DNA of 64,000 nt. Origin: a virus. Of this stretch, positions 5,229-46,337 are shown piece after piece. Made by a program: the position numbers and the translations under genes. Under the pieces are notes generated by a model. It was not told the origin of the DNA and searched no databases. It was given only the letters and a program-made list of their open reading frames with translations. The stretch covers positions 42,131-106,130 of IMG/VR virus record IMGVR_UViG_3300045988_132745; one strand, given 5' to 3'. Positions within the stretch are counted from its first letter, which is position 1; the number at the start of each line of letters is the position of its first letter.

Positions 5229-6155
5229 ATGGAATTAAGACATTTACGCTCCTTTGTTTATGTCGCCGAAACAAAGTCGTTTAGTACGGCTGCCACACGT
5301 TGTTGTGTCACACAGTCGGCGGTAAGCCAGCACATTCGTGCCCTGGAGGATGAGTTGGGCTGCAAACTGCTTATCCGCACATCACACGGTATTATGCTCA
5401 CCGAAAGTGGCGAAGCCCTGTTGCCTCGTGCAAAAGAAATACTGAAACAGACCGAGGACTGCAAAGAGCAAATCAACGCCCTCAACAACTGCATGACGGG
5501 TGAACTGCGTATAGGCGTAGGTTCGTTTATTGCTCCATACGTCCGCATGGCTGCATTGTTTTTTATGGAGAGATACCCTAACGTGCGTATCAATGCCGAC
5601 TTTACTAAAGCCTACATCCTCAACCAATCGCTAAGGGCGCACATGTTAGACCTTGCTTTCACAATGAATATGGCATACCGCCACGAAGGAATAGAGTCGC
5701 GACCCTGCATACCTTTTAATGTGTATGCTATTATGCGCGACACCCATCCGCTTGCCTCGCTCTCAAAGGTGTCGTATGAGGACATTCTGAAGCACCCAAT
5801 CATCATGCCCGACATAGGCGAACGTGCCATTGAGACTTTTCAGCAATACATACAGCGCGACCTATATAAGCTCAATATCAAGTGCATCATCAGCGACCCT
5901 GACGAAGCTCTTGCTTCCGTGGAAGAAACCAAGTACGTCACCTTTATGCCTAAGCTCTACCTGCGCAACCACCCTACCCTTGTGGCACGTCCAATCGTAG
6001 GAATCGAACAGCAGTTGATGAGCAACGCCCACTGTATGCAGGACGTACCAAAGAAGCGAGCCGCACAACTCTTCCTCGACATCATCCGCGACGAAGTAGT
6101 GCCATATATTTCCGTAGCCGAAGAGGCGCAAGGGAAGTTCACACCGCCACCTTGA
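5229..6155 (+). CDS. LysR-family transcriptional regulator
   Basis: N-terminal HTH MELRHLRSFVYVAETKSFSTAATRCCVTQSAVSQHIRALEDELG plus roughly 200-aa substrate-binding-type C-terminus; classic LTTR layout. Confidence 0.9.
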   Translation: MELRHLRSFVYVAETKSFSTAATRCCVTQSAVSQHIRALEDELGCKLLIRTSHGIMLTESGEALLPRAKEILKQTEDCKEQINALNNCMTGELRIGVGSFIAPYVRMAALFFMERYPNVRINADFTKAYILNQSLRAHMLDLAFTMNMAYRHEGIESRPCIPFNVYAIMRDTHPLASLSKVSYEDILKHPIIMPDIGERAIETFQQYIQRDLYKLNIKCIISDPDEALASVEETKYVTFMPKLYLRNHPTLVARPIVGIEQQLMSNAHCMQDVPKKRAAQLFLDIIRDEVVPYISVAEEAQGKFTPPP

Positions 6156-6887: not shown

Positions 6888-7310
6888 ATGGAATACAAAA
6901 ACTCACAAATCTTGGCGGCAGTCGTGTCCGAATGGGCACGACCCGCCATTTCACAGATAGCCGCAGGCAACCTCATGCGCCTACCCATGCTTCAGTCTCT
7001 GCAAGCCACCATCAGCTCGTTAGGCATTGTTAGTGGCAACTATGCCCTACAGAAGGACATCGAGCCGCTTATCCAGCCAATCATCAACTCGCTCGTCGCA
7101 CCTATGCTTGCCCGATATTTCGGTCAGATACCCGAGGAGAGTATACCGCAGATGGCACACGACATAGTGGAGAAGATGCGTGGTAACGGACCGCTGTCGG
7201 TGCTCGAAGGTATGGTGACGTTTGAAGAAGAAGACCTCAACGAGCTTGCCGATCTTCTTGACAAGAACCTTCCCGTAGCGCAGACGCAAGGCTATCAGGT
7301 AAAACATTAA
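6888..7310 (+). CDS. hypothetical protein
   Basis: 140-aa ORF packed in the + strand operon. Confidence 0.55.
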   Translation: MEYKNSQILAAVVSEWARPAISQIAAGNLMRLPMLQSLQATISSLGIVSGNYALQKDIEPLIQPIINSLVAPMLARYFGQIPEESIPQMAHDIVEKMRGNGPLSVLEGMVTFEEEDLNELADLLDKNLPVAQTQGYQVKH

Positions 7311-8895: not shown

Positions 8896-9972
8896 ATGAC
8901 ACAACGAAACATCAACCTTACGCTGCCCCGCTCATGGAATGAGTGCAGCACCGAGCAGTTGGAGCTCATCTCCCGTATAATGCTTGAGCAGATAGAGCGA
9001 GTCGACCGTTATCATCCCTTCGACATGCGCAACGTCAAGATAGCGTGCTTCTTCGTCTTGTCTGGCATAGAGATAGTGGAAGGCATAGACGAGTCGGAAC
9101 CTCTCGAAGAGCAACACTACACTTGCCGATTCTCCACCCCAAGTCGTCGCAACCGTTTCTTCCGTCGCAAGCAACATGAGGAAGAAACCTTCCCCATCTA
9201 CCTATGGCAGCTCAACTACTGGCTAACGCCAAAGCCGAAGACCGACGACCGCAACTCGGCTGAGTATCTTGCCTCTGGTGCCGGACTGCTCGATTGGCTC
9301 GACAACGAGCGTGGAGCTCACCTCACTCGCTTTCCCTACCCCACCCTTCGCCTACGCAACAAGCGTGGTCTGCTACGTCGCAAGATTGAGTTTGAAGGTC
9401 CTGCGCAGGATATGGACGGCTTCTCATGGCAGCAGTTTCGCTTTGCCCATGATCTCATGGGACAAAACACCTCGCTCGACAACAACCTTGTCAAGATGAA
9501 GAAGATGGGCAAGTTCACAGCCGAGCAGATAGCACAGCAAGCCGACAGCGTAGACCAGGCACGCTCTATGTTCCTTGCCACAATCTTCAACCGTCGCATC
9601 GACTTCATCGACACCAACACCAACCTGAAGGTACATGATTTCCATTACGACGTGCGTCAGTTCGACACCCAAGCTCCACTCTTCCGCCACTTCCCCGCCC
9701 ACCAGTGGCAACCCATCCTCTTCTGGTGGGCCGGCATGATGCACACTCTCTCACGGCGTTATCCTCATGTGTTCAAGGTGCAGAAGATCGACCGCACGCA
9801 ACCACCGTCCACCCCACTTGAGATATACACCGCCACCATCGCCACTATGCAGAAATACGCCTCGCTCACCGAAGACCAGGTGAACAATCAGTCATATTCG
9901 CTTGTGCTGGAGCATTTGGAACGAATCTCGAAGGATAATGAGGAGATGGAGAAGATTCGCAACGCGAAGTGA
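8896..9972 (+). CDS. hypothetical protein
   Basis: 358-aa ORF; no recognised motif. Confidence 0.6.
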   Translation: MTQRNINLTLPRSWNECSTEQLELISRIMLEQIERVDRYHPFDMRNVKIACFFVLSGIEIVEGIDESEPLEEQHYTCRFSTPSRRNRFFRRKQHEEETFPIYLWQLNYWLTPKPKTDDRNSAEYLASGAGLLDWLDNERGAHLTRFPYPTLRLRNKRGLLRRKIEFEGPAQDMDGFSWQQFRFAHDLMGQNTSLDNNLVKMKKMGKFTAEQIAQQADSVDQARSMFLATIFNRRIDFIDTNTNLKVHDFHYDVRQFDTQAPLFRHFPAHQWQPILFWWAGMMHTLSRRYPHVFKVQKIDRTQPPSTPLEIYTATIATMQKYASLTEDQVNNQSYSLVLEHLERISKDNEEMEKIRNAK

Positions 9973-10981: not shown

Positions 10982-11353
10982 ATGAAGAACAGAGAAATGC
11001 ACATTGCATTGCGTAATAGCGGCTATCGTTTTATTGGCGAGAAGTATGGAGATTATACCTACGGCAAGCCTTTAGGGTATGGCTGTTTAAGCGCTTATTT
11101 TCGCCCAGAGGAGGCGAAAATAGAAATATTGCTTATGGTAAAAGAGGTACCTCAGAAAGATAAACATCTAAATGCGATTTGGAAGAGTGTTCGTCACGAC
11201 ATATCGAGCGAGCATGAAGACTTTTACCTTAATTGCGTGCAGACCATCAAAGACTGCGAGGTAGAGATTTTCTCAACAACGCCTGTGGCTTGGCAATGTA
11301 ACAGGTTTGTAAGATACGACTTTGAAGAAAACCCTTCGCTGGATATAGATTAA
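10982..11353 (+). CDS. hypothetical protein, paralog of 17849-18223
   Basis: Shares YRF..., GKPLGYG, IFS.TPVAW..NR.VRYDFEEN with the 17849 ORF. Confidence 0.65.
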   Translation: MKNREMHIALRNSGYRFIGEKYGDYTYGKPLGYGCLSAYFRPEEAKIEILLMVKEVPQKDKHLNAIWKSVRHDISSEHEDFYLNCVQTIKDCEVEIFSTTPVAWQCNRFVRYDFEENPSLDID

Positions 11354-11386: not shown

Positions 11387-12565
11387 ATGAAGAACGTAAA
11401 GATTTTCGCAAAGACCATTGAGCAGGAGGCCAAGGAACAGATTGAGAGGATGGCAGCGAGCGAGGCTTATCGCGATTGTCAGATACGCATTATGCCCGAC
11501 TGTCATGCGGGCAAGGGATGCACGATTGGTACGGTAATTCAGACTGCCGGTAAGGTGGTGCCCAATACCGTAGGCGTGGATATAGGCTGTGGTATGTTGG
11601 TATTCAAGTTCGCTGAGAAGGATATAAACCTTTCGCTTCTCGACCGAATCATCAATGAGTCGGTGCCGAGCGGATTTGACGTTCACGAAAAGTCCAAGCT
11701 AAAAGATATAAGTCCGCTTACGTCACATATTTTGCTCGAATTACACGAAAGGACACAAGGCTGCTTCGACCCCGACTATATCGGACGCTCGCTTGGCACC
11801 CTCGGTGGCGGCAATCACTTCATCGAGTTGGACGAGGACGAGCAGGGTTATAAGTATCTTGTGATACATTCGGGCAGTCGCAATCTCGGAGTTAAGGTGT
11901 GCAACTTTTTCCAACACTTAGCCAAGAAGAATGTGAATCGAAACGAGGAGCGCAAGCGCATCATCGAAGACTTAAAGAAGTACGGCTTAGAGAAGGAGAT
12001 TAACAATACGTTGCGTCGTTTGGGCACCGTGCCTCCCGATCTCGCCTATCTTGAGGGAGAAGACCTCGATGCCTATATTTTCGCAGCGAACGTCTGTCGG
12101 TGTTTTGCAGACGACAACAGATGGAATATAGCAATGACTATCATCCATGGGCTTCATTTACCGTTCGTGGATTTCTTTACCACCAGGCATAACTATTTCG
12201 ACATACACTCAGGCATCATCCGAAAAGGAGCCGTGCGAGCTGCAAAGGACGAACAGCTCATCATTCCGCTCAATATGCGCGACGGTTCGCTTCTGTGTAT
12301 AGGCAAGGGCAACGACGACTGGCTTCAGTCGGCTCCGCACGGAGCTGGCAGACTAATGTCGCGCTCGGCGGCCAAGAAGCAGCTCAGCATGGAGGAATAC
12401 CGACAGCAGATGCACGACATTTACTCCACATCGGTATGCGAGTCAACAATCGACGAGTCACCAATGGCGTACAAGCCAGCCGAAGAGATAGAATCGCTTA
12501 TAGCCGACACTGTGGAAATTAAAAAGCGCATTAAACCTATATACAATTTCAAAGCGAAAGAGTAA
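11387..12565 (+). CDS. rtcB: RtcB-family 3'-phosphate/5'-hydroxyl RNA ligase
   Basis: Metal and GMP-site motifs IMPDCHAGKGCTIG, GGGNHFIEL, HSGSRNLG and PHGAGR, in the canonical order. Confidence 0.9.
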   Translation: MKNVKIFAKTIEQEAKEQIERMAASEAYRDCQIRIMPDCHAGKGCTIGTVIQTAGKVVPNTVGVDIGCGMLVFKFAEKDINLSLLDRIINESVPSGFDVHEKSKLKDISPLTSHILLELHERTQGCFDPDYIGRSLGTLGGGNHFIELDEDEQGYKYLVIHSGSRNLGVKVCNFFQHLAKKNVNRNEERKRIIEDLKKYGLEKEINNTLRRLGTVPPDLAYLEGEDLDAYIFAANVCRCFADDNRWNIAMTIIHGLHLPFVDFFTTRHNYFDIHSGIIRKGAVRAAKDEQLIIPLNMRDGSLLCIGKGNDDWLQSAPHGAGRLMSRSAAKKQLSMEEYRQQMHDIYSTSVCESTIDESPMAYKPAEEIESLIADTVEIKKRIKPIYNFKAKE

Positions 12566-12611: not shown

Positions 12612-12986
12612 ATGAGAATATTCAAATTCAAAGGCAAGAGTGTTGATAGTAGTGAGTGGATTGAAGGCTATTACTATAAGGAGTGTGATAATACCTACAT
12701 CATTGAGGACAGACAGAAAGACTCTGTACTTAATCGTAATGAAGCGGTCTTAATTGATCCTTCTACCGTCTGTATGTATACAGGACTAAAAGATTGTGAA
12801 GGCAATGAGATTTGGGAAGGCGATATACTCGAAGGAGAGTCTAAATGTGAAATCGTTTTCTTTAAAGGAACTTTTGCTATACGTTATATTAATTCTAACG
12901 GAAAAGAATGTGTTGACCCTTTACATTATTTTATAAAAGAAGACGGAACGGTTGAGTGCAAAGTTATTGGCAATATATACAAGTAG
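12612..12986 (+). CDS. YopX-family phage protein
   Basis: MRIFKFKGK...EWIEGYY...YTGLKDCEGNEIWEGDILE...KVIGNIYK is typical of YopX. Confidence 0.75.
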   Translation: MRIFKFKGKSVDSSEWIEGYYYKECDNTYIIEDRQKDSVLNRNEAVLIDPSTVCMYTGLKDCEGNEIWEGDILEGESKCEIVFFKGTFAIRYINSNGKECVDPLHYFIKEDGTVECKVIGNIYK

Positions 12987-14371: not shown

Positions 14372-14734
14372 ATGAGAACAATCAAATTTAAGGGCAAGCG
14401 TCTTGACAATGGCGAGTGGGTGGAAGGCTACTATAGAGGAAACAATGAAGGCAAAGCTTTTATCTCAAGAATTAAAAGACCTCCTTTGTATTTTGCAGTT
14501 GACCCTGAAACCGTCTGCCAGTTTACAGGTTTGATAGATAGTGAAGGCAATGAGGTTTGGGAAGGTGATATACTTGAAGGTTCTAATACAGGAGAAATCT
14601 GTTTTGACCAAGGTGCTTTCCTTATTCACTCTATTTATGATAATGTTTTGTACTCTTTATTTAATTATACAACATGGGACGGAAAGATAACGTGTAAAGT
14701 TGTTGGCAATAAATTCGATAAGATTAGCGTATGA
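14372..14734 (+). CDS. YopX-family phage protein (second copy)
   Basis: MRTIKFKGKRLDNGEWVEGYY...FTGLIDSEGNEVWEGDILE...KVVGN; paralog of 12612-12986. Confidence 0.75.
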   Translation: MRTIKFKGKRLDNGEWVEGYYRGNNEGKAFISRIKRPPLYFAVDPETVCQFTGLIDSEGNEVWEGDILEGSNTGEICFDQGAFLIHSIYDNVLYSLFNYTTWDGKITCKVVGNKFDKISV

Positions 14735-17848: not shown

Positions 17849-18223
17849 ATGAACATGAGAGATTTTGTGATAAAGGCATTGCGAAACTACGGTTACCGCT
17901 TTCTTGAGAATCAGAGCGGTTGCTACACTTTTGGCAAACCGCTTGGCTACGGCATACTTCGTGCGGATGTGCGCGAGGGTGAAAACTCCGTAAGTGTCAT
18001 GCTGATTGTTAAAGGAAACGTGAAGGACGGCAAACGCCCGAATCAGATATGGCAGCGGACGAGCCAGGGCTTTCTGGAAGAACATGACAAACAGAAGATG
18101 TACGAGGCGTTAGTGCAAGCCGTTGCCGACTGTGAGGCAGACATCTTCTCTAAAACGCCTGTGGCTTGGTTGCAAAACCGAGACGTGAGATACGACTTCG
18201 AGGAGAATGTCCATATCGAGTAA
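17849..18223 (+). CDS. hypothetical protein, paralog of 10982-11353
   Basis: See 10982; same length class and shared motifs. Confidence 0.65.
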   Translation: MNMRDFVIKALRNYGYRFLENQSGCYTFGKPLGYGILRADVREGENSVSVMLIVKGNVKDGKRPNQIWQRTSQGFLEEHDKQKMYEALVQAVADCEADIFSKTPVAWLQNRDVRYDFEENVHIE

Positions 18224-18704: not shown

Positions 18705-19349
18705 ATGAACATATTTATATCTACTTTTTTAGGCTGGGCATTCTTTCTTGGTGCCGTCTTCGGTTGGACATTCTTCCTCGCCTTTGTCGTTTGGCGTGTG
18801 CGGATAATGCACAAGGAACGTCTTGCTAAGAAAAGTCTGCGAAAGAGCGAGGAGAAGCGGAAGACCGACTCTGACGACATGCCTGTGCTCCTCACTCCGA
18901 AAGAGCGTCGCGAATACATGCTCAACCACATCGAGGACGGACGTTTTTACGCAATCTCGTCGCTCCGTGGCTCTGACACCACCATTGTGTGCGCTGAGCG
19001 ATATGATGCCGAAGAACAAAGGCTATATTGCTATGCTTACCTTTTGATAAGCGGACGTGGTGTGTATAATCTGCACATTAGTGACCCTCGCGGTATATTT
19101 AAATTACGCTATTTTATTGGTAACAATCCCCTGAACATCGACTTCGACTGTAATCCTCACCTCGTTGTCTTTGAAGAAGAGAACATTTCTCCGTATATCA
19201 CAGATAGAGACTACAACGACTTCGTGCAAAGCTTGCAAAAGGCTGGGGGCGATTGGAAGATTGAGAAGGGCGAAGATAACGGACTGGGCTCTTACAAATA
19301 TCTCTTGAAAGAAAACAATAACATAATAACAAATACAACAAGCAAATGA
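18705..19349 (+). CDS. N-terminally membrane-anchored protein, paralog A
   Basis: TM span then LLTPKERREYMLNHIEDGRFYAISSLRGSDTTIVCAERYD; about 170 bp nearly identical to 21215-21374. Confidence 0.65.
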   Translation: MNIFISTFLGWAFFLGAVFGWTFFLAFVVWRVRIMHKERLAKKSLRKSEEKRKTDSDDMPVLLTPKERREYMLNHIEDGRFYAISSLRGSDTTIVCAERYDAEEQRLYCYAYLLISGRGVYNLHISDPRGIFKLRYFIGNNPLNIDFDCNPHLVVFEEENISPYITDRDYNDFVQSLQKAGGDWKIEKGEDNGLGSYKYLLKENNNIITNTTSK

Positions 19350-21023: not shown

Positions 21024-21647
21024 ATGGAAACAATCTTATTGAAACACTTACTGTGCATGATGTGCGTGATAGGAGTAGTAACCCTTATCGCTTGCCTCTT
21101 TTGGCTGTGGCGCGAGTTCTTTCGTACCTGGAGAGAGAAGAAGGCAAAGCAAAAGGAGGGATGCCAACAGCAGAAAAAAACTACATGCCTGCCGGAGCCG
21201 CCTTTGCTCCTCACTCCGAAAGAGCGTCGCGAATACATGCTCAACCATATCGAGGACGGACGTTTTTACGCAATCTCGTCGCTCCGTGGCTCTGACACCA
21301 CCATTGTGTGCGCAGAGCGGTATGATACCGAAGAACAAATGCTGTATTGCTATGCTTACCTTTCGATAAGCGGAAGGGGGGATTATAATCTGCATATCAT
21401 CGCCCCTATCGGCAAGACCAAGTTTTGCGACTTCCTCGGCAAAAAACGACTGCGTATTGACCTCGACCTCATTCCTCGCTGCGTTGTCTTTGAAGAAGAG
21501 AACATTTCTCCGTATCTCGTAGATAGAGAATATAACACTTTCGTGCAGAGTTTGCAAGCGGCTGGATTCGACTGGAAGATTGAGAAGGGCGAAGATAACG
21601 GACTGGGCTCCCACAAATATCTCTTGAAAGAAACAAGAACAAAATAG
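21024..21647 (+). CDS. N-terminally membrane-anchored protein, paralog B
   Basis: Same architecture and near-identical core as 18705-19349. Confidence 0.65.
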   Translation: METILLKHLLCMMCVIGVVTLIACLFWLWREFFRTWREKKAKQKEGCQQQKKTTCLPEPPLLLTPKERREYMLNHIEDGRFYAISSLRGSDTTIVCAERYDTEEQMLYCYAYLSISGRGDYNLHIIAPIGKTKFCDFLGKKRLRIDLDLIPRCVVFEEENISPYLVDREYNTFVQSLQAAGFDWKIEKGEDNGLGSHKYLLKETRTK

Positions 21648-24918: not shown

Positions 24919-25689
24919 ATGATTGAACTGAATAAGATATATAATGAAGACTGCCTCGAAGGAATGAAACGGATTCCAGACGGGAGCGTGGATTGCATTG
25001 TGTGCGATTTGCCGTATGAAGTTCTGAACAAAGGCAATGAAAAGGCACGATGGGATAACATTATCCCGATGGAGCCTCTATTCAAGGAATACTGGCGAAT
25101 AGCAAAAACTAACGCTCCTATTATTCTCTTCGGTCAAGGAATGTTTACGGCACAGCTAATGATGGCACAACCTGACACATGGCGATATAATCTAATTTGG
25201 CAAAAAGACCGACCTACAGGATTTCTCAATGCGAAGCGAATGCCTATGCGGAGCCATGAGGATATTGCTGTGTTCTATCGTGCGCTACCTACATACAATC
25301 CGCAGATGAGACAAGGTTTCCCCACTCACTCACGAGGGCATAAACACGGAAAAGCAAAGGGTAATGTCTGTTATGGCAACTATAATATTGAGACTTACTC
25401 AAAAGAAGCATCAACTGAAAAATATCCTATATCTGTATTGTTCTTCGACAAAGAAAAGAATCTTGATATGCACCCCACTCAAAAGCCCGTAGCTCTTATT
25501 CAGTACCTCATTCGCACTTACTCCAACGAGGGCGACACCATCTTAGACAACTGTATGGGTAGCGGCACCACCGCCATTGCAGCCATCCGCGAGAAGCGTA
25601 ACTTCATCGGCTTTGAGCTCAACAAGGAGTATTACGACAAGGCTTGTAAGCGCATCAAGTTGGAGCAAGCGCAGCTCAAGCTGTTCTGA
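24919..25689 (+). CDS. beta-class DNA methyltransferase (N6-adenine or N4-cytosine)
   Basis: Motif IV DCIVCDLPY is N-terminal to HPTQKPVAL and motif I LDNCMGSGTTAIAA; this order is typical of the PF01555 family. Confidence 0.85.
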   Translation: MIELNKIYNEDCLEGMKRIPDGSVDCIVCDLPYEVLNKGNEKARWDNIIPMEPLFKEYWRIAKTNAPIILFGQGMFTAQLMMAQPDTWRYNLIWQKDRPTGFLNAKRMPMRSHEDIAVFYRALPTYNPQMRQGFPTHSRGHKHGKAKGNVCYGNYNIETYSKEASTEKYPISVLFFDKEKNLDMHPTQKPVALIQYLIRTYSNEGDTILDNCMGSGTTAIAAIREKRNFIGFELNKEYYDKACKRIKLEQAQLKLF

Positions 25690-38299: not shown

Positions 38300-40636
38300 A
38301 TGGCAGAAAAAACAGAGAAAAGGATTAAGGTGCTGCTTACACCGGGTGGCTCGGAATGGGTGGCGGATAAGGAGTACAAGAGACTTGACTACATCTCGGA
38401 CGGCAAGTCCGTGTGGGTGTGCGTCAAGGTGGATGCCGTGTCGGGTGTAAACGTGGGGCATCCGCTAACGGAGACGGCGTGGTGGAACAAGTGCATCGAC
38501 CTTAGCGAGGCGGAGAGCCTTGCTGGCGAGGCGACTGCTGCAGCTAACGCTGCCGCGACTACCGCCAACAATGCGGCTCAGGCGGCAGAGGATGCCAAGA
38601 CGGCGGCGGAGGCGGCTGTCTCCGAGGCAAACAAGGCTACGGAAGCTGCCAATACCGCGACATCGGCGGCACAGGCTGCCACTGCTGGGGCTAACGACGC
38701 TACTGCTGCCGCCGAGAAGGTGAACGCTGTGCTTGGCGATGACAACGTGCTGAAGGTGACGGACAGAAATGGAGTCGAGAAATCTTTGGAGCTGGTGTCG
38801 CAGGCTGCAGCAACAGAGATAGCGAAGCAGGTGGAGCAGAACACGGCGGACATATCGGGCGTGCAAAAACGTCTCGATATGTTCGGTGATGCTTTTGTAG
38901 GCTTTGCCCGTGTGTCGGGCGATGCCGACCCGAAACCTTCGCAGACCTACATCTACGGCACACGCCAGCTGGTGCGCGAGATTGGCAAGCACATGAAGAT
39001 AGGCACCGTGAAGCGTGTGGGCAACGAAGCTGTGTTGCAGCATGAGGGTGCGCCTGGACGCATAACCAAGGCAAGCAACGGCGAGGCAATGGCTGTGGAT
39101 GGCTCGGAGGGTGACTTGTTGGTATATACCGACATTCCTCTGCATCTTATCAAGGCTAACGAGACTGTCGAAGGACAGGAAATGAGCTGTATGGGCATAG
39201 GTGTAGTGCCTTGCTACTGGATGGGCCATGCAGCCAAGCGACTGGAGCCTTTCGCCTTTGCTCCATTCTATACTGTCAACGCAAAGATATTCGACGATGA
39301 GCGTTCGTGCGCACATTGTATCATCTCTGATGCAGTGGCTGGTACGTCTTTTACGCTTAACGGATTCGTACAAGAGACGTTCCGCCCAAATGCAAATGGT
39401 TATTACAATGTAGGTGTCTCGTCATTGGGATCGATACATAATGCACAGGCTAAGAACGCCGACTCTAACACCAACCGTCCGTACATGGGAGGCTACTATG
39501 AGTTCTACGAGCTGTGGATGACGATGATGTACATTGAGTGCGGCACGCTCAACACTACCGACCTCTACAGCATGGGTGTAGGTCTGACTACAGCCCACTC
39601 GGCAACAGCCGACACTTGGAACAACGAGCGCATTGCTGCAAACTCGGGCATAAAGATGATAGCGGCAGACGGCACGGTGGCAGGTTATGGTGCACTGATG
39701 TCGAAGAGCATGCGCAAGGGTGCAGACGGTAAGGTGGACTATAACCTCTCGGCAGTAGTGGGTAACGGATATTACAGCGCGACTAAGTGCGGAGAGGCAT
39801 TGATGGTGCTCGACGGCATAACTAAGGCAGGATTGCAGAGTAAGGTAGGCTTGTCTACTAATGTGTTCTATTTTGACGAGACGAACAATCTGGTATGCTC
39901 TACATCTATCAATCTTGACACAGGCGAGGGCATGACCCCCAACAAGCGATACTTCGTTGTGCGCGACGTGCCTAACTGTCAGGGTATCGGCGAGGGAGTG
40001 CTCACGGCTGTAATAAATACTTATGTCAAGTTCTCGGTAGCCGACGGTATATATACAGACAGTACCGACCTTACGGGAGGCACGGTAATATACAAGTTCT
40101 CGCATTCGGTGTACCGTGGCATGAGTATTCCTATGGACGGTGCATTCATGCAGCTATGTGGCGCACATTATATGTCTGGACGTACAGCTGAAGATACTGT
40201 CTACGGCAAGTTCTGTTGTGCCGAGAAATGGCAGGACATGGCACCGTTGACAAACGACACTGCCTATGGCGATATTGGCACTGAGTTCAACATTCTAAAG
40301 GGATTGAACAACGTAAAAAGCGTAAGTGGTAACGCAGGATGGGTAAGCAAGGCCGACTATTCTCTGTCGCTGTTCTGCTTTACCGAGCACAGCGGCGGTA
40401 TGCACACTAAGGAGTGCCGCTTTACTTGGAACGGTAATACACTATGGGGCTATGGTGATAGCAATACAGGTTTGCCCGCTACAGGTAAGGAAGGCGTAAA
40501 GGCTCTGGTTGTCGGGTGCAATGCGAACTGTGGCACTGCGTCGGCTTGTACCGCTATTTGCTACTCTGGCGTTAGCAATGGCGATTGGTATTACGCTGGG
40601 GCTTTGGCTGTCCCTCAGCTTAAATTCAAGCAATAA
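38300..40636 (+). CDS. DGR target protein: fibre-like receptor-binding protein with C-terminal variable region
   Basis: Ala-rich coiled-coil N-terminus like neighbouring fibre genes; the last ~40 aa are the VR copy of the downstream TR. Confidence 0.85.
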   Translation: MAEKTEKRIKVLLTPGGSEWVADKEYKRLDYISDGKSVWVCVKVDAVSGVNVGHPLTETAWWNKCIDLSEAESLAGEATAAANAAATTANNAAQAAEDAKTAAEAAVSEANKATEAANTATSAAQAATAGANDATAAAEKVNAVLGDDNVLKVTDRNGVEKSLELVSQAAATEIAKQVEQNTADISGVQKRLDMFGDAFVGFARVSGDADPKPSQTYIYGTRQLVREIGKHMKIGTVKRVGNEAVLQHEGAPGRITKASNGEAMAVDGSEGDLLVYTDIPLHLIKANETVEGQEMSCMGIGVVPCYWMGHAAKRLEPFAFAPFYTVNAKIFDDERSCAHCIISDAVAGTSFTLNGFVQETFRPNANGYYNVGVSSLGSIHNAQAKNADSNTNRPYMGGYYEFYELWMTMMYIECGTLNTTDLYSMGVGLTTAHSATADTWNNERIAANSGIKMIAADGTVAGYGALMSKSMRKGADGKVDYNLSAVVGNGYYSATKCGEALMVLDGITKAGLQSKVGLSTNVFYFDETNNLVCSTSINLDTGEGMTPNKRYFVVRDVPNCQGIGEGVLTAVINTYVKFSVADGIYTDSTDLTGGTVIYKFSHSVYRGMSIPMDGAFMQLCGAHYMSGRTAEDTVYGKFCCAEKWQDMAPLTNDTAYGDIGTEFNILKGLNNVKSVSGNAGWVSKADYSLSLFCFTEHSGGMHTKECRFTWNGNTLWGYGDSNTGLPATGKEGVKALVVGCNANCGTASACTAICYSGVSNGDWYYAGALAVPQLKFKQ
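40508..40618 (+). repeat. DGR variable region (VR)
   Basis: 111 nt aligning to 40994-41104 (offset 486) with 12 differences, all at TR adenines. Confidence 0.85.
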
Positions 40637-40703
40637 AAAGGCAGCAAAAACAAAAAGCTGTCGGCCGTTAGACAACAAGCCTTGAGCGACGCCAACCAGC
40701 TGA

Positions 40704-40727
40704 GGGGCGGCGGCTGTTAGCCGCCCC
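40704..40727 (+). promoter_or_regulatory. GC-rich hairpin downstream of VR (candidate DGR target-recognition element)
   Basis: ggggcggc / gccgcccc perfect 8-bp stem, about 85 nt after the VR end. Confidence 0.5.
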
Positions 40728-40795
40728 GACTGGCGCCTTGTGGAGCTGGCAAATAATCAATAAACTTCAAGTATTTCTCAAAAAACAAAAATATT

Positions 40796-42664
40796 ATGAC
40801 TCTCATCGAACAGAAAAATATCGACACAACGAAGCAGCCATCATCGGAGAATGGGGTGATGTACGGCTGTCCGGTGGGTGCGTCTTGTCATGAAGCACAC
40901 GGTAAGCTCTCTCCTGCGGTGGACGGCAATGTGCCGACCGAGCCGTGTGTGACGGTTGACAAAGACAAAAGCGTGGGTAAGGAAAAGGCTCTCGTTGTCG
41001 GGTGCAATGCGAACAATGGCAATGCGTCGGCTTGTACCGCTAATTGCAACAATGGCGTTAGCAATGACAATTGGAATTACGCTGGGGCTTTGGCTGTCAA
41101 TCAGGTAGAAGATAGCAGGAAACACCTTACAACGCGACCAACAAGGTTAAACATAGCGAACACCCATACCGCCACTGGTGGGTATGGATTGGTAGACTGC
41201 CGCTCATTGCCGTTTTGGAGCGAGAGCACGGAGGCAGACGGCACTATCGGGAATGGTGCCAAACCGATGAAGGCTACCCATGAGGGAAATATCCTCGATG
41301 AATTGAAGACAGCGAATCATAAGAAGAAGCTGAGAAACTTGAAGAGATTTTTGACAGACCCTGTGATTGTGCGCATGGGTGTAGACAGATGTCTGGAGAG
41401 GGCAAGCGACTCGCCCGAAGTGCGCAATATTGAAAACAACAAGGAATACGTAATACAGCGCATAATACGTGAGCTGACCGACGAGACCTACAGATGTCAG
41501 CCTACCGTGCGTCGCATTATCGAGAAGAAAGGCAAGGGCGACAAGAATCGCAATGCCGACATATACACGGTGTATGACAGATGTGTGCAAAACGTGCTGC
41601 TGATAGTAATAAAGGAGAAGCTAACAAACATCATTTCGCCTTATTGCTATTCGGGCATTGAAGGCAGAAGCCTGTGGAGCAACGACAAGCGCGGGTGTAT
41701 GGTGAACCGAATACGTACATACGTAAAGAACCATCCCGATGCGAGCGCAGGATTGACGGACATACGTCATTTCTACGAGACGCTAAAATCGAAGGTGGTG
41801 CTTGGTGTGGTGTTCGAAACTATCACTTGCCCGTTTACACGCCGATTGCTGTGCGACATACTATTGCAGCACGACACGCTCGTTATTGGAGGTACGCTGT
41901 CGCAGATTCTCGCTATGCTTACGTTGACGGAGATGGATAACGAATTGACAAGACGCTTTAAACCGCAATTCTATGGTGGCTTTGGTGACAATCGTATCAT
42001 CATGGACGATGATAGAGAGAAGGTGTTGAAAGCCGTGCATTGGGAAAGGAGTTATCTTGAAGGTAGGTATGGCATGGAGATGAAGGGCGACTATCAGGTG
42101 GTGAGAGTGAAGAATGGCTTTATGTTTTGCAAACAGCACTTTAAAGGGTCGTTTGTGAACGTTAGGTCGGAGCTTAGGCGTAGGGCTATACGTGCAGCAG
42201 GCAGAGGCAGGCAGAACTATGCCGGCTATCACGGAATGTTGATGAAGACGGACAGCAGAAGACTGATACAACTTATAAGAAATGATATTAGACGATTAAA
42301 AAGAATGAAGAATCAAAAAGGAATGTCGGTACGCCCTATGGTTGGCGACAATATCAAACTGGATAAGGTAGAGGGTATGCAGATTGTCATTACAGACTAT
42401 TCGGTACGCCAGAACCATAAGGACAGCGAGTTCTTCGTTCGCTTTCAGTTTGTGGCAATAGGCGACGATGGTAGCAAGCATCTGTTTGTCACCAACAACG
42501 GCAGCTACGAGATAAAGGAGTTCTTCAAACTGGCTGAGGAAGGCAAAGTGAAAATTCCGTTGAAAACGAAGATATGCGCAGAGGGCAAGTCGTTTTACTT
42601 CGAGGGGTATCACACTACGAGTCAGGAGGCATGCGAACTGATATGCGCTAAGTTGGGAATATAG
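40796..42664 (+). CDS. DGR-type reverse transcriptase (maximal ORF; RT domain may start at in-frame ATG 41267)
   Basis: RT motifs KKGKGDKNRNADIYTVYDRCVQNVL, LTDIRHFYETL and DGR-typical VIGGTLSQ (41885-41905); motif C position reads FGDN (41981-41992). Confidence 0.85.
   Translation: MTLIEQKNIDTTKQPSSENGVMYGCPVGASCHEAHGKLSPAVDGNVPTEPCVTVDKDKSVGKEKALVVGCNANNGNASACTANCNNGVSNDNWNYAGALAVNQVEDSRKHLTTRPTRLNIANTHTATGGYGLVDCRSLPFWSESTEADGTIGNGAKPMKATHEGNILDELKTANHKKKLRNLKRFLTDPVIVRMGVDRCLERASDSPEVRNIENNKEYVIQRIIRELTDETYRCQPTVRRIIEKKGKGDKNRNADIYTVYDRCVQNVLLIVIKEKLTNIISPYCYSGIEGRSLWSNDKRGCMVNRIRTYVKNHPDASAGLTDIRHFYETLKSKVVLGVVFETITCPFTRRLLCDILLQHDTLVIGGTLSQILAMLTLTEMDNELTRRFKPQFYGGFGDNRIIMDDDREKVLKAVHWERSYLEGRYGMEMKGDYQVVRVKNGFMFCKQHFKGSFVNVRSELRRRAIRAAGRGRQNYAGYHGMLMKTDSRRLIQLIRNDIRRLKRMKNQKGMSVRPMVGDNIKLDKVEGMQIVITDYSVRQNHKDSEFFVRFQFVAIGDDGSKHLFVTNNGSYEIKEFFKLAEEGKVKIPLKTKICAEGKSFYFEGYHTTSQEACELICAKLGI
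40994..41104 (+). repeat. DGR template region (TR)
   Basis: Asn-codon-rich (AAY) copy of VR lying 5' of the RT domain. Confidence 0.85.
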
Positions 42665-42748
42665 AGTTGGGAATTAGGAGTTAGGAGTTAGGAATTGATC
42701 GCCTATGGCGATTTTGAGTTATTGAATTTTGAATTGAGAATTAAGAAT
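42665..42748 (+). repeat. AATTCAAAA/GAGTTAGGA-arm element with central GC hairpin (copy 2)
   Basis: gagttaggagttaggaattgat-CGCCtatGGCG-attttgagttattgaattttgaattgag; the hairpin plus attttg could terminate the RT transcript. Confidence 0.6.
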
Positions 42749-42761
42749 ATAAAATTTTATT

Positions 42762-43355
42762 ATGGAAATGACAAGAATGATTTTTGAGCAGAAGCAGCCG
42801 AAGGTGGTTGTCTGCAAAAGTGGCAGGGCTATGATTGCTCTTAACGAGCAGGTAGTGAAGTCTGTGGAGAGTGTACCTGTGGGTATGACCGAGGAGGGTG
42901 AAATGCGCTACGAGGAGCGAGAGAAGGAACAGTATGCGTATGATGTGTGCTGGCTTGAGAATGTTGGTACAGAAGCCGACGTGCTCAACTCGGCTAAAGC
43001 GGCTGTGCTCGCCGCTATTGAAGCCTACGACACTTCATCTGCTGTCAACGGCTTTATCCTCAACGGACAGCGTGTTTGGCTCGACAAGGCGACACGTGTA
43101 GGTCTGATGAACTCTACCACTATCGCTAAGGCTATGGGACAGCCTACTACTACACTGTGGTTGGGCGATGTGAAGCTGGTAGTGGAGTGCGACAAGGCTA
43201 TACAGCTGCTCTCGGCACTGGAGATGTATGCCCTGGAGTGCTTTAACGTTACGGCTGCGCACAAGAAGGCTGTAGCGGAAATGAGCACGGTGGAGAGTGT
43301 ACTGGGGTATGACTATACGAAGGGGTACCCGAAGGTGCTGGAAATGAGAGTTTAA
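42762..43355 (+). CDS. DUF4376-like tail-fibre-associated protein
   Basis: ...NGQRVWLDKATRVGL...LLSALEMYALECFNVTAAHKK...YDYTKGYP matches my memory of the DUF4376 pattern. Confidence 0.5.
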   Translation: MEMTRMIFEQKQPKVVVCKSGRAMIALNEQVVKSVESVPVGMTEEGEMRYEEREKEQYAYDVCWLENVGTEADVLNSAKAAVLAAIEAYDTSSAVNGFILNGQRVWLDKATRVGLMNSTTIAKAMGQPTTTLWLGDVKLVVECDKAIQLLSALEMYALECFNVTAAHKKAVAEMSTVESVLGYDYTKGYPKVLEMRV

Positions 43356-43500
43356 GTGAAAAGTGAAGAGTGAAAAATCCATGTGCTTTTGCTTCTTGCG
43401 AGGATTTTGCGCTCTTTTAACTATCGGATTCTTCACTCTTCGTTCTTCACTCTTCACTTTAAAAAGCTATTGGATTTTTCCCTTTTCACTTTTAACTTTT
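43354..43500. repeat. GTGAAGAG/GTGAAAAG low-complexity inverted-repeat element
   Basis: aagtgaaaagtgaagagtgaaaaatcc (43354-43380) faces ggattcttcactcttcgttcttcactcttcactt (43426-43459); then ctattggattttt core. Confidence 0.65.
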
Positions 43501-43512
43501 AACTTTAAGAAT

Positions 43513-44018: not shown

Positions 44019-44294
44019 ATGGCAACTATTGATACTATAGATGTGCTGAGCTTGCCCACAACGGACAAGGTGCAGACGGGTGACACGTTGCTCTTGATAC
44101 GTCCTAAAGCGGATGGCACACAAGAATGCTATCGTGTCGAGGGTAAAGACTTCAGAGGCGAGGACGCTTATGATGTGGCCAAGGCGGGAGGATATACTGG
44201 CACGAGGGGAGAATGGGAGGAACAGATCAGGCGAGTGAGCAAAGTGGACGTAGGGTTTGACGCAGAAGAAGGCTCGCTTGTGATTAGCTATTAA
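44019..44294 (+). CDS. small fibre-associated protein
   Basis: 91 aa; C-terminal VDVGFDAEEGSLVISY is shared with the next fibre gene. Confidence 0.5.
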   Translation: MATIDTIDVLSLPTTDKVQTGDTLLLIRPKADGTQECYRVEGKDFRGEDAYDVAKAGGYTGTRGEWEEQIRRVSKVDVGFDAEEGSLVISY

Positions 44295-44379
44295 GTGAAA
44301 AACGAAGAGTGAAAAGTTAAAAATCCAATAGTTAAGAGAGCATATGGATTTTTCACTCTTCACTTTTCACTCTTCACTT
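44293..44379. repeat. GTGAAGAG-family long imperfect hairpin
   Basis: aagtgaaaaacgaagagtgaaaagttaaaaatcca ... tggatttttcactcttcacttttcactcttcactt. Confidence 0.7.
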
Positions 44380-44399
44380 AACCTTTAAAACATAACGAT

Positions 44400-45440
44400 A
44401 TGAAAAAGATAGTAAGAGGTAATGATTTTACATTGCGCATACCCGTGCGCAAGATTGTGGGGGGCGAGATGCAGAAGTTTCCATTGCCTGCATGCGAGGA
44501 GATTGAGGTGAACCTTGTAAACGCCTTTCGTCGCAGAAGAATGGCGCATACGATAGGTGTGGAGGACGACTCGCTGCTTGAGGTGAGGGTGCAAAGCTCG
44601 GAGATGGCTCTGGGTGCGTATGCCCTTGAGGTGAAGGGCAAGTTGTTTGGCTGTTCATGGCGAAGCAATGAGTATGAACAGATAATGCTTGTGGATAATA
44701 ATGCGTCGGGCGACACAGTGTTTGAGCCACATGAGGGTGAGGACTCGGTTGAGATGGACACGGCTGTTGTGGTGCTGCCTCCTACCGTGGAACTTGGCAA
44801 CCTGATAACGGGGGCAAACGAGGCTATCAAGAAGGCGAATGTGGCTACTGACAGAGCTAATGCTTCGGCAGACAAGGCTGACAAGGCTGCTGCGGACGCT
44901 AAGAGCACGGCTGATACTGCTGCTGCAGAAGCGAAGGCTACTGCGGACGCTGCTGCTGCCGAGGCGAAGAAAACGGCTAATGACGCTGCTGAACTGGCTA
45001 TTACAACTGCTAATGATGCCGCGACCGATGCAGAACAGAGAACGACCGCTGCTATTGCCGAAATGACTAAGCAGACGGACACTACGCTTGCTGCTGTTAC
45101 GCAACAGACAACGGACGCTATTGCTGATGTTAAGCAACAGACTACAGACGCTATTGCTGACGTTAAGCAACAGACAACGGACGCTATTGCTGATGTTAAG
45201 CAACAGACAGATACTGCTATTGCCGACGTGAAGCAACAGACTGCCGATGCTATTGCCAAGAACGACAAGGCTACGACCGATGCTGTGGCTAAGGCTGACA
45301 AGGCTACGGCTGACGCTGTGAAGGCTAAGACGGATGCGGACACGGCTGCGGACAGGGCTAATACGGCTGCAGAAAGATGCGAGAGCGTGAACGTAGATTT
45401 TGATGTGGAAAGAGGAGAATTGGTGATTGTAAGTGAATAG
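44400..45440 (+). CDS. fibre/baseplate protein with Ala-rich coiled coil and tandem 11-aa repeats
   Basis: N-terminal beta-rich domain, then ADKA/AEAK coil and QQTTDAIADVK repeated about 4.5 times. Confidence 0.65.
   Translation: MKKIVRGNDFTLRIPVRKIVGGEMQKFPLPACEEIEVNLVNAFRRRRMAHTIGVEDDSLLEVRVQSSEMALGAYALEVKGKLFGCSWRSNEYEQIMLVDNNASGDTVFEPHEGEDSVEMDTAVVVLPPTVELGNLITGANEAIKKANVATDRANASADKADKAAADAKSTADTAAAEAKATADAAAAEAKKTANDAAELAITTANDAATDAEQRTTAAIAEMTKQTDTTLAAVTQQTTDAIADVKQQTTDAIADVKQQTTDAIADVKQQTDTAIADVKQQTADAIAKNDKATTDAVAKADKATADAVKAKTDADTAADRANTAAERCESVNVDFDVERGELVIVSE
45102..45258 (+). repeat. 33-bp in-frame tandem repeat, about 4.5 copies
   Basis: caacagacaacggacgctattgctgatgttaag units. 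Confidence 0.8.
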
Positions 45441-45506
45441 TGAAAAGGGAAAAATCCAATAGCTTTTAAGAGTAAAAAAGTAAAAGGGTAAAAAAGTAAA
45501 AGGGTT
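45431..45506. repeat. GTGAA/GTAAAAAAG low-complexity intergenic repeat
   Basis: aagtgaatagtgaaaagggaaaaatccaatagcttttaagagtaaaaaagtaaaagggtaaaaaagtaaaaggg. Confidence 0.65.
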
Positions 45507-45511
45507 TTATT

Positions 45512-45940
45512 ATGAAAGCAAGTGACATTTTGATTGACAAACTGAAGCAGTTTGAGGGGTATCGGGCCAAGGCTTACAGATGCCCTGCTGGAGTGTGGAC
45601 GTGTGGGTATGGGCATACCAAGGGCGTAACGGCTCGCACGGCGTGCGACAAAGCGAAGGCTCTTGCATGGCTAAGGTCTGACCTTGCGCCTATCGAGAGC
45701 TTCCTATCGGCTGTGCCTGAGGTGGCGAAGACGCAAGGACGCTTTGACGCATGTGCGGATTTCTGCTTTAATCTTGGTACGGGTGCCTTCCGTGGCTCTA
45801 CGCTCTTTAAACTGATACAGAAGAAGGCTTCGATGGCTGCTATCCAGGCGGAGTTCTTGAAGTGGATTTATGCAGGAGGTAGACCGTTGGAAGGATTGAA
45901 AATGAGAAGACGATGGGAAGCAGGCCGCTTTGCGGAGTGA
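45512..45940 (+). CDS. GH24 (T4/lambda-type) phage lysozyme / endolysin
   Basis: LKQFEGYRAKAYRCPAGVWTCGYGHT catalytic-Glu motif and ...GGRPLEGLKMRRRWE. Confidence 0.85.
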   Translation: MKASDILIDKLKQFEGYRAKAYRCPAGVWTCGYGHTKGVTARTACDKAKALAWLRSDLAPIESFLSAVPEVAKTQGRFDACADFCFNLGTGAFRGSTLFKLIQKKASMAAIQAEFLKWIYAGGRPLEGLKMRRRWEAGRFAE

Positions 45941-45990
45941 AGAGTGAAGAGTGAAAAGTGAAAAATCCAATAGTTATGTAAAAGTGAAAG
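45937..45990. repeat. GTGAAGAG-family intergenic repeat
   Basis: gtgaagagtgaagagtgaaaagtgaaaaatccaatag. Confidence 0.65.
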
Positions 45991-45992
45991 TT

Positions 45993-46235
45993 ATGGAGAA
46001 TGTTATTACAAAGATTGTGAATAAGGTGGGTAGCGATAAGGTGATGCACGTGGAAACGTGTGCGCTTATAGCTGTTGTGGCGAAACGATGCTCGGGCAGT
46101 GTGGCGATAAGTGCTGCTGTTGCTCTGGGTGTAGGATTGCTTAAGGAGCTGTATGATGTGGCTACGGGAGAGGAGTTTGACTGGAAAGACGTGGCTGCGG
46201 ATGCTGTGGGAGCGGTAGTTGGAGCAAGCATTTAA
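45993..46235 (+). CDS. small membrane protein, lysis-cassette position (holin/spanin candidate)
   Basis: Start moved to MENVITKIV; two hydrophobic spans; directly follows the endolysin. Confidence 0.45.
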   Translation: MENVITKIVNKVGSDKVMHVETCALIAVVAKRCSGSVAISAAVALGVGLLKELYDVATGEEFDWKDVAADAVGAVVGASI

Positions 46236-46307
46236 AAGTAAAAAAGTAAAAGAGTAAAAAGGTAAAAAAGGACTTTTAAGGGTAAAAAAGTAAAAAGAGT
46301 AAAAAAG
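46234..46307. repeat. GTAAAAAAG low-complexity repeat
   Basis: aaaagtaaaaaagtaaaagagtaaaaaggtaaaaaagg...gggtaaaaaagtaaaaagagtaaaaaag. Confidence 0.65.
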
Positions 46308-46337
46308 AAGGCTGCTGTCCTCACGGATAGCAGCCTT
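46308..46337. terminator. bidirectional terminator, conserved-apex family (GUGA on the - strand)
   Basis: aaggctgct-gtcctcacggat-agcagcctt; A-run upstream and T-rich downstream. Confidence 0.7.

Follow-up and report, generated by a model that had tools for sequence, protein, structure and literature searches.

A diversity-generating retroelement (DGR) of unusual build lies in a 64,000-nt stretch of viral DNA (IMG/VR record IMGVR_UViG_3300045988_132745, positions 42,131–106,130; hereafter the window). On its + strand, a 778-aa open reading frame (ORF; 38300–40636) is followed by a 159-nt gap and then by a 622-codon ORF (40796–42664) that encodes a reverse transcriptase (RT). We consider it probable, though by no means assured, that this is an active DGR of a Prevotella/Bacteroidales tailed phage, that it diversifies the C-terminus of a tail fibre independently of the accessory protein Avd, that ribosomes read through the template, and that a C-terminal module of the RT stands in for Avd. 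To judge from its sequence, the locus has the properties by which a DGR is defined: an adenine-specific pattern of differences between a template repeat (TR) and a variable repeat (VR), a VR within a coding target, an adjacent RT of the DGR type, and ongoing mutagenic homing. The coordinates of all features are collected in Table 1.

The two repeats form one 121-nt direct repeat with 89% identity. Because 12 of the 13 mismatches fall on adenines of the downstream copy, the segments at 40498–40618 and 40984–41104 were assigned as VR and TR, respectively. Differences located at TR adenines were also seen in seven distant relatives, and all of the distant loci (7/7) had a VR of their own upstream. 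Two IMG/VR phages, L001 and L013, encode RTs that are 98% identical to the window RT and carry a TR that differs by one base. The VRs of L001 and L013 differ from TR, from one another and from the window VR at 12–13 positions, all of which are TR adenines, and the mismatch density between these near-identical phages was 13–15 per 100 nt in VR versus 1–7 per 100 nt in the flanking target. The presence of three different VRs in three near-identical phages with nearly the same TR indicates that the element is active and has diversified recently, with no Avd found and with an FGDN active site.

The RT ORF gave a weak match to Pfam RVT_1 (aa 243–414) and a match to a PHROG reverse-transcriptase family over residues 70–507. 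Its best relative in the PDB, as detected by phmmer, was the Bordetella DGR RT (bRT; 8ub7_A, 328 aa, E 8.8e-6), and the same structure was the top Foldseek match of an AlphaFold2 model of the whole ORF (E 1.8e-14, target TM-score 0.88, rmsd 2.1 Å over 328 columns). By its best matches in both sequence and predicted structure, the enzyme is an RT of the DGR type. RT motif 4 reads IGGTLSQ. In motif 5, FGDN (F396-G397-D398-N399, 41981–41992) takes the place of the YxDD that is canonical for DGR and group II RTs; phmmer aligned it with the YMDD of bRT, the second Asp being replaced by Asn, and in the AlphaFold2 model it sits at the tip of the catalytic β-hairpin E392-396/E399-404. FGDNR was invariant in every clade member examined, down to 39% identity. 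FGDN likewise forms the catalytic core in RT-Cas1 fusion proteins from type VI-A CRISPR systems, which are active and for which a change of FGDN to FGAA served as the RT-minus control (PMC11662929). Since these proteins are active and the VR data obtained here point to diversification, FGDN appears to be compatible with activity.

TR lies in frame within the RT ORF, as a first-pass annotation made from the sequence had noted, and so do about 120 stop-free codons outside TR: the non-TR leader of the window contains 0 stops in frame 0 versus 8 and 6 in the other two frames. Since a protein search puts full-length matches at the top, the sample could be biased toward long frames, and loci were re-sampled with probes that excluded the leader (RT core, RT-core motifs, a genome scan and a stand-alone accessory protein). 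The frame was open through TR in 15/15 IMG/VR loci obtained with the RT-core probe, in 7/7 further loci of 39–51% identity obtained with RT-core motifs from a divergent alignment, in 2/2 loci from the genome scan and in 3/3 from the accessory-protein probe. With 27/27 loci in frame, ranking bias of the first protein search was ruled out as the source of the long frame. The start codon sits 46–70 codons before TR in the 27 loci. In 15 representative loci, the non-TR leader of 100–148 codons has 0 stops in frame 0 versus 3–25 in each other frame, and the TR "NYAG" codon and the RT "KRKLKNL" anchor lie apart by one of nine distances (222, 225, 228, 231, 240, 243, 246, 267 and 294 nt), all of which are multiples of 3. 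The first-pass annotation had suggested a comparison of homologous loci as a means of defining the RT start. This comparison showed that ATG 41267 (Met158) is not conserved, its place being taken in relatives by codons for Ile, Leu, Thr or Ser, and that the frame is open upstream of it; the next invariant Met is M194, within strongly conserved RT sequence, and strong protein-level conservation starts at about residue 160. The one short homologue and sole apparent exception, a 465-aa protein starting with MKATHEG (P0024), was considered as a naturally leaderless RT and was rejected, because an N run in its contig collapses VR and TR, which is an assembly artefact. In L036, an ENA scaffold, an N run at ~2650–2757 fuses VR directly to TR. 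Collapse of the VR/TR repeat by assemblers leads to truncated RT gene calls such as P0024.

The ratio of non-synonymous to synonymous substitution rates (dN/dS) differs along the ORF. It is ~0.07 in the RT core and the C-terminal domain, where dS is saturated (>1.4 in the RT core), 0.35–0.5 in distant pairs upstream of TR, where dS is only 0.2–0.7, and 0.6–1.1 in the spacer, where dS is 0.2–0.7 (1.0 in one pair) and neither stops nor frameshifts occur. As the nucleotides of the leader are conserved whatever their codon position, it bears the signature of a functional RNA. The frame-0 codon-usage score was 0.30 for the pre-TR leader, 0.28 for the RT core and −0.05 for the spacer; the off-frames of the pre-TR leader scored −1.05 and −0.73 (reference values, 0.48 ± 0.18 for real genes and −0.84 ± 0.36 for off-frames). 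In addition, a short LP[FY]W motif in the distal spacer is preserved across most lineages although its Leu and its Pro are each spelled by four different codons, i.e., through synonymous changes. The most economical reading of these sequence data has translation begin at 40796 and run on through TR and spacer, giving a presumably disordered leader whose sequence is set mainly by RNA function. Among the papers covered by a literature search for in-frame or translated TRs in DGRs, none reported such an overlap to be conserved or translated.

The same segment has a predicted RNA structure that encloses TR. The two arms of a two-part duplex, one on either side of TR, were paired in 99% of cells in an alignment of 10 lineages, with compensatory changes in 6/10 pairs, and the 4-bp stem that follows (41136–41148) was 100% paired, with compensatory changes in 3/4 pairs. 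Taken jointly, the 14 pairs of duplex and stem-loop were 99.3% paired in the 10 lineages and 9/14 showed compensatory changes, a score that was reached by 0/500 shuffles. The hairpin at 41164–41187 was 99.1% paired in 12 sequences, with 5/10 pairs compensatory, and 0/500 shuffles reached its score, while slid controls were 25–46% paired. Upstream of TR and in the distal spacer, RNAalifold predicted additional helices that contain compensatory changes. The leader peptide motifs KS.GKE and ATGG correspond to RNA helices read as codons. Covariation thus shows TR to be flanked, within the first 157 codons of the RT ORF, by RNA resembling the cPRT Stop, an arrangement of duplex, stem-loop and adenosines seen in the Bordetella ribonucleoprotein and predicted in 207 Avd-containing DGRs (Handa et al., bioRxiv 10.1101/2023.10.23.563531). 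In Bordetella phage BPP-1, the 58 nt between TR and duplex comprise a 31-nt Avd-binding stem-loop (Sp3-33) and the primer strand (Sp47-56) (10.1101/2023.10.23.563531). The corresponding interval here is 20 nt, so that the RNA itself argues against an Avd partner. Inspection of this 20-nt linker by eye for a priming adenosine and a TR:spacer primer duplex gave no convincing conserved pairing. The first-pass annotation had posed an alternative between a translated N-terminal extension and an RT that starts at ATG 41267 downstream of spacer RNA. The choice was a false one, as 41105–41266 carries both covarying spacer RNA and an open frame that appears to be under selection.

Canonical architecture B has an avd gene in the cassette, encoding a basic PF05635-type four-helix bundle of ~110–130 aa; the present cassette has none. 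About 85 non-overlapping ORFs of at least 70 aa across the 64 kb were scanned against Pfam with a cut-off of E ≤ 0.05, and none matched PF05635 (Avd), HRDC or MutS_I. No ORF fits within the gap at 40637–40795, and the ORFs of at least 40 aa that touch it all extend into the neighbouring genes; the absence of an Avd gene and the empty gap had both been noted from the sequence at the outset. No HRDC or MutS-like gene was found within 7 kb of the RT in eight relatives either. Among 76 small ORFs from these regions there was no strong Avd match, and PF05635 was not among the matches listed, which comprise 25 of the 33 matched families, the other eight being single-member matches. In every locus, the RT ORF directly follows the target gene with nothing between them. 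Architecture A, i.e., target-TR-RT with no accessory gene, accounts for 29% of curated DGRs, and one whole RT lineage is without avd (Wu et al. 2018, PMC5758913). The crAss-like phage LMMB carries a TG-VR-TR-RT cassette without avd (PMC7290462).

The RT is extended beyond its thumb by a domain that was modelled by AlphaFold2 from a 23-sequence alignment as a compact fold of the order β-β-β-α-β-β-α (mean pLDDT 93.2, pTM 0.81), which agrees with the ~120 extra residues recognized in the first-pass annotation. Purifying selection on residues 504–622 is as strong as on the RT core. In a search of 1.84 billion cluster representatives, the domain was found in only 29 proteins, which form two groups: TR-RT proteins of 570–670 aa that carry it at the C-terminus, and short proteins of 120–150 aa. 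The split loci were obtained by a search for homologous proteins and then for the contigs encoding them. In L035, the RT ORF ends right after the thumb and a 150-aa homologue of the domain begins 3 nt later; the split form is also present in L040 (2 nt), L042 (18 nt) and L044 (22 nt), and L032, a close relative of L042, is fused. The related-locus search gave no matches with P0134 or P0146 in viral contigs, nor with P0141 in metagenome contigs. Because it is a separate adjacent gene in four lineages and fused in others, the C-terminal segment is best regarded as an accessory module of this DGR clade. The domain matched no Pfam, NCBIfam or PHROGs family, and a profile search of the PDB gave nothing below E 0.1; the leader likewise had no match in Pfam, PHROGs or NCBIfam. 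The predicted order of secondary structure, the isoelectric point (pI) of 7.7 and the lack of a Pfam match indicate that the domain is not an Avd homologue. From its distribution in an Avd-less clade, it is nevertheless reasonable to infer that the module does the job of Avd. The first-pass annotation had likewise proposed that this segment substitutes for Avd. A fused-or-split module restricted to an Avd-less clade speaks indirectly for that idea; the domain is neither a helical bundle nor basic, and no nucleic-acid-binding fold was established for it, which speaks against it. The annotation had also named an outcome that would count against it, namely a segment common to the RT clade and without a nucleic-acid-binding fold, and half of this outcome is what we see, the segment being a common part of the clade.

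Several findings weigh against the reading that we favour, and they are considered here together with the alternatives that draw on them. AlphaFold2 assigned the leader (residues 1–163) a pLDDT of ~25 and no secondary structure, so that it is predicted to be disordered, and the fossil lectin-like folded segment envisaged there in the first-pass annotation was not borne out. The spacer combines a dN/dS of 0.6–1.1 with an intermediate codon score (−0.05), from which it follows that most of the spacer peptide itself is probably not under selection. LP[FY]W is absent in the branch of L032, L040, L042 and L044, translation of the leader is deduced from conservation alone, and the segments used for the duplex and stem-loop test were picked manually from homologous positions, a choice that somewhat biases the test toward structure. 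If translation of the RT began internally (at ATG 41267 in the window and, in other loci, at a near-cognate codon), 40796–41266 would be non-coding DGR RNA, and its open frame would stem from the coding origin of TR and from chance. Such a start would suit the lack of predicted structure and a leader conserved at the nucleotide rather than the peptide level (low dS, dN/dS up to ~1), in which RNA helices explain much of the conserved "peptide" (KS.GKE, ATGG); moreover, TR and spacer are untranslated in canonical DGRs. We consider it improbable, because each of ~12 divergent lineages has 0 frame-0 stops against a mean of ~7 per off-frame, the nine spacer length classes all preserve the frame, the unbiased loci are open without exception, Met158 is absent in most lineages while M194 is already inside the conserved RT sequence, and the LP[FY]W substitution pattern is synonymous. 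Another possibility is that translation through TR has a regulatory purpose, with the leader peptide as a side product. Ribosomes might unfold the TR-spacer RNA, so that any one transcript serves as mRNA or as template but not as both, or an upstream start might be needed since structured RNA would block initiation at the RT in a non-Shine-Dalgarno host; Bacteroidota initiate translation without Shine-Dalgarno sequences. The predicted disorder of the leader, a dN/dS close to 1 over most of the spacer and an RNA with extensive structure as far as the RT core are all in keeping with this, as is the absence of a TAnnTTTG −7 box from the 159-nt gap, which fits one long transcript. We give this explanation appreciable weight, though we would not wager on it: it leaves the peptide-level conservation of LP[FY]W unexplained, and it overlaps with the favoured reading without excluding it.

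The remaining counterpoints concern Avd and the C-terminal domain. Foldseek found only weak neighbours of the domain in the PDB (E 0.08–0.3, TM-score 0.25–0.35), and the domain is near neutral (pI 7.7, versus ~9.5 for Avd) and not a helical bundle. The weak PDB neighbours were OB-fold single-stranded DNA (ssDNA) binders (PrgE, Teb1, RPA and SSB) and PUR-alpha, and a search of BFVD returned, besides members of the domain's own family, two further viral RTs (E 1.8e-4 and 9e-3) and, as weak matches, SSB and DUF669 proteins of phages. It is accordingly quite conceivable, if not what we expect, that the module acts at another step, such as binding of complementary DNA (cDNA) or ssDNA during VR integration or recruitment of a host factor, and that Avd-independence comes from the RT core and the RNA alone. 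Apart from these neighbours, the lack of a basic character would agree with such a role, as would the description of Avd-less DGRs without such a module, for example crAss-like lineage 3 (PMC7290462). The structural matches are, however, all below significance (PDB E ≥ 0.08, TM-score ≤ 0.35), and the module is tied strictly to the RT clade and in each case comes immediately behind either the thumb or the stop codon of the RT, which would suit a subunit of the RT complex. An Avd or another accessory protein encoded elsewhere in the phage or host could also act in trans. The Avd screen covered the 64-kb window while related contigs reach 77–106 kb, and Avd proteins are poorly conserved (Wu 2018, PMC5758913), which leaves some room for this explanation. 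We regard it as very improbable, given that none was found in the window or near the RT in the eight relatives, that the RNA has no room for an Avd-binding stem-loop, and that genome-wide profile searches of other hosts of Avd-less DGRs gave no avd elsewhere (Wu 2018, PMC5758913).

Under the reading that we favour, that of an Avd-independent DGR, translation of the RT would begin at ATG 40796 and pass through the RT's own template, so that the protein carries a disordered leader, with the short LP[FY]W motif in most lineages. The mRNA would double as template RNA, the RT probably acting on the RNA that encoded it, and the C-terminal module would supply the scaffolding or nucleic-acid-positioning role that is held by pentameric Avd in Bordetella. 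A bolder version, which we put forward tentatively and think rather unlikely, is a self-contained single-transcript DGR in which the RT must be translated through TR and spacer so that the nascent enzyme captures its own RNA in cis, with LP[FY]W as a docking motif, the α/β domain replacing the Avd pentamer at the template-primer duplex, and FGDN as the active site. LINE-1 ORF2p, which prefers its own mRNA, offers a comparison for capture in cis. If true, DGR ribonucleoproteins would have a second way of assembling, distinct in mechanism.

Table 1. Positions of the DGR features, counted from the first letter of the window.
Feature	Position	Strand	Remarks
DGR target gene, tail-fibre-like	38300..40636	+	778 aa; VR in 3′ end; PHROG tail-fibre matches over the N-terminal part
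Variable repeat (VR)	40498..40618	+	121-nt direct repeat of TR, at 3′ end of the 778-aa target ORF
GC-rich hairpin, 8-bp (GGGGCGGC / GCCGCCCC)	40704..40727	+	~85 nt past VR; kept in the alignment of relatives; folds with its flanks at −26.4 kcal/mol
Single ORF: leader (TR + spacer RNA), RT core and accessory domain	40796..42664	+	622 codons
Pre-TR leader	40796..40970	+	Coding-like codon usage, conserved at all codon positions; 5′ helices predicted by RNAalifold
5′ arm of the TR-clamping duplex (cPRT-Stop-like)	40971..40982	+	Predicted to pair with 41125-41135
Template repeat (TR)	40984..41104	+	In the frame of the RT ORF, which is the same reading frame as in VR
Linker between TR and 3′ arm	41105..41124	+	20 nt; candidate primer strand (inferred); too short for an Avd-binding stem-loop
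3′ arm of the TR-clamping duplex	41125..41135	+	Predicted two-part duplex with 40971-40982
Stem-loop GACC-AACAA-GGTT (41136-41148), then A-run AAACA	41136..41153	+	Predicted 4-bp stem
10-bp hairpin with bulged G and ACN triloop	41164..41187	+	Predicted; accounts for the conservation of the peptide "ATGG"
Distal spacer, predicted long interrupted stem	41188..41266	+	RNAalifold pairs with compensatory changes between subclades; L-P-F-W codons at 41207-41218
RT core (N-terminal extension, fingers, palm, thumb)	41267..42304	+	dN/dS ~0.07; protein-level constraint from about residue 160
C-terminal accessory domain, predicted α/β, 119 aa (aa 504-622)	42305..42661	+	Uncharacterised family; follows the thumb

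The RT ORF is flanked by the target gene on one side and by a 197-aa DUF4376 tail-fibre-like protein on the other. Further upstream, beyond the target, a 1724-aa tail-fibre-like protein is encoded, and the DUF4376 gene is followed by genes for a holin-like membrane protein and a lysozyme. The target position is occupied by a gene of 650–1190 aa in all relatives. One distant relative, the IMG/VR contig L032, has two tandem 707-aa target genes with VRs at 7085–7210 and 9580–9705, both of which match its single in-frame TR. Since the contigs of L032 (279 kb) and L035 (273 kb) carry members, the clade spans phages of very different genome size. The first protein search gave more than 120 homologues of the RT ORF, down to 70% identity and almost all of 621–628 aa, and the 90% cluster of the ORF includes a 622-aa RefSeq entry, WP_440430672.1 ("hypothetical protein [Prevotella sp.]"). 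A scan of 185,579 species genomes gave two matches only, a Bacteroidaceae and a Prevotella metagenome-assembled genome. Against 50,697 phage records, megablast with the cassette gave zero matches, and tblastn with the RT gave only four weak matches, crAss-like phages being absent among them. Between the target and the RT ORF, the hairpin at 40704–40727 has no T-run on its 3′ side; it could be a candidate DGR target-recognition hairpin or cruciform, or else a transcript-processing element. The sequence blocks AAGGCAGCA..AAAAAGCTGTCGGC..TAGAC, located at 40640–40700, in the gap that separates the target gene from the RT ORF, are kept in relatives. The Bacteroidetes −7 box TAnnTTTG does not occur in 40601–40800.

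Several other features of the window were observed. A GGAGTTAGG tract lies directly after the RT stop codon (42665–42760) and is similar to the (AAAAGTAA)n tracts with a period of 8 nt at 45453–45517 and 46219–46311. Downstream of the DGR, purine-rich intergenic repeats, AGTGAA[AG]AGTGAAGAGTGAAAAATCCA, and their reverse complement at 43354–43505, 44291–44381, 45425–45476 and 45927–45982 form long hairpins between genes. A 346-aa ORF (44400–45440) has six copies of a 33-nt (11-aa) tandem repeat, TDAIADVKQQT, at 45055–45289 in an Ala/Asp/Thr-rich coiled segment, and a longer, spurious-looking ORF occupies its opposite strand (44378–45616). The window also encodes a LysR-type regulator (5229–6155), an RtcB RNA ligase (11387–12565), two YopX paralogues (12612–12986 and 14372–14734) and an N6/N4 DNA methylase (24919–25689). 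Two gene pairs are duplicated with near-identical C-terminal halves, 18705–19349 with 21024–21647 and 10982–11353 with 17849–18223.

In the roughly one quarter of DGRs without Avd, the priming and control of adenine-mutagenic reverse transcription have yet to be explained; Wu et al. (2018, PMC5758913) expressly deduce that an as yet unknown mechanism works without Avd. The clade described here offers a testable model of Avd-independent mutagenic retrohoming, in which a Bordetella-like cPRT Stop appears to be kept and the Avd-binding stem-loop to be absent. Because both fused and split versions exist in nature, the candidate Avd replacement should be easy to delete or to supply in trans. The apparent coupling of translation to template RNA is unusual, and the VR data point to an FGDN enzyme that is active in nature. 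A compact target-TR-RT unit of ~2 kb without a separate accessory gene could also serve engineered in vivo hypermutation, which now depends on bRT and Avd. For annotation, "hypothetical proteins" of 590–670 aa such as WP_440430672.1 would be re-described as DGR RTs with an embedded TR.

The closest structural reference is the BPP-1 ribonucleoprotein of bRT, Avd and DGR RNA (PDB 8ub7-8ubf; Handa et al., bioRxiv 10.1101/2023.10.23.563531). Like BPP-1, the present element has the order target-VR, TR, RT and adenine-specific VR/TR differences, its predicted RT core superposes on bRT (TM-score 0.88), and its TR is enclosed by a putative duplex formed by the sequences on either side, after which come a short stem-loop, adenosines and then more stem-loops. 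Unlike BPP-1, it has no avd gene that we could find and no Avd-binding stem-loop, its RT ORF contains the TR and spacer, which are apparently translated, FGDN replaces YMDD, and the RT ORF is 622 rather than 328 aa long, with an extra C-terminal domain that in some loci is a separate gene. In architecture and host association, it resembles architecture A1/RT lineage 3 (Wu 2018, PMC5758913) and the crAss-like phage LMMB (PMC7290462), which share the target-TR-RT order without an accessory gene, the occurrence in Bacteroidales and their phages, and a tail-fibre target; the in-frame TR, FGDN and C-terminal module appear here and are unreported there.

Each element of this layout has a precedent. 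TR overlaps the annotated RT ORF in DiGReF structural group 3 (Schillinger et al. 2012, PMC3521204), a descriptive annotation class, whereas the overlap seen here spans all of TR and all of the spacer and appears to be maintained by selection. About 20% of DGR RTs have a C-terminal extension of up to 150 aa past the thumb, with no motif, and the small accessory protein CH1 (160–169 aa, pI 4.7) occurs only in DGRs without avd, HRDC or MSL (Wu et al. 2018, PMC5758913); compared by description only, the stand-alone homologues of the present domain are 136–151 aa long, have a pI of 5.4–7.6 and follow the RT directly. The FGDN core is shared with RT-Cas1 of type VI-A CRISPR (PMC11662929), an unrelated system that acts in spacer acquisition. 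The anatomy that led the first-pass annotation to call the layout non-canonical is therefore real, but the label was overstated: the Avd-less layout, the TR/RT-ORF overlap and the C-terminal extension are each already in the literature, and this is not a new kind of system. What appears to be new is the selection-maintained read-through of a whole template RNA, a cPRT-Stop RNA without the Avd-binding element, an accessory domain that is either fused or split, and an FGDN active site throughout a clade.

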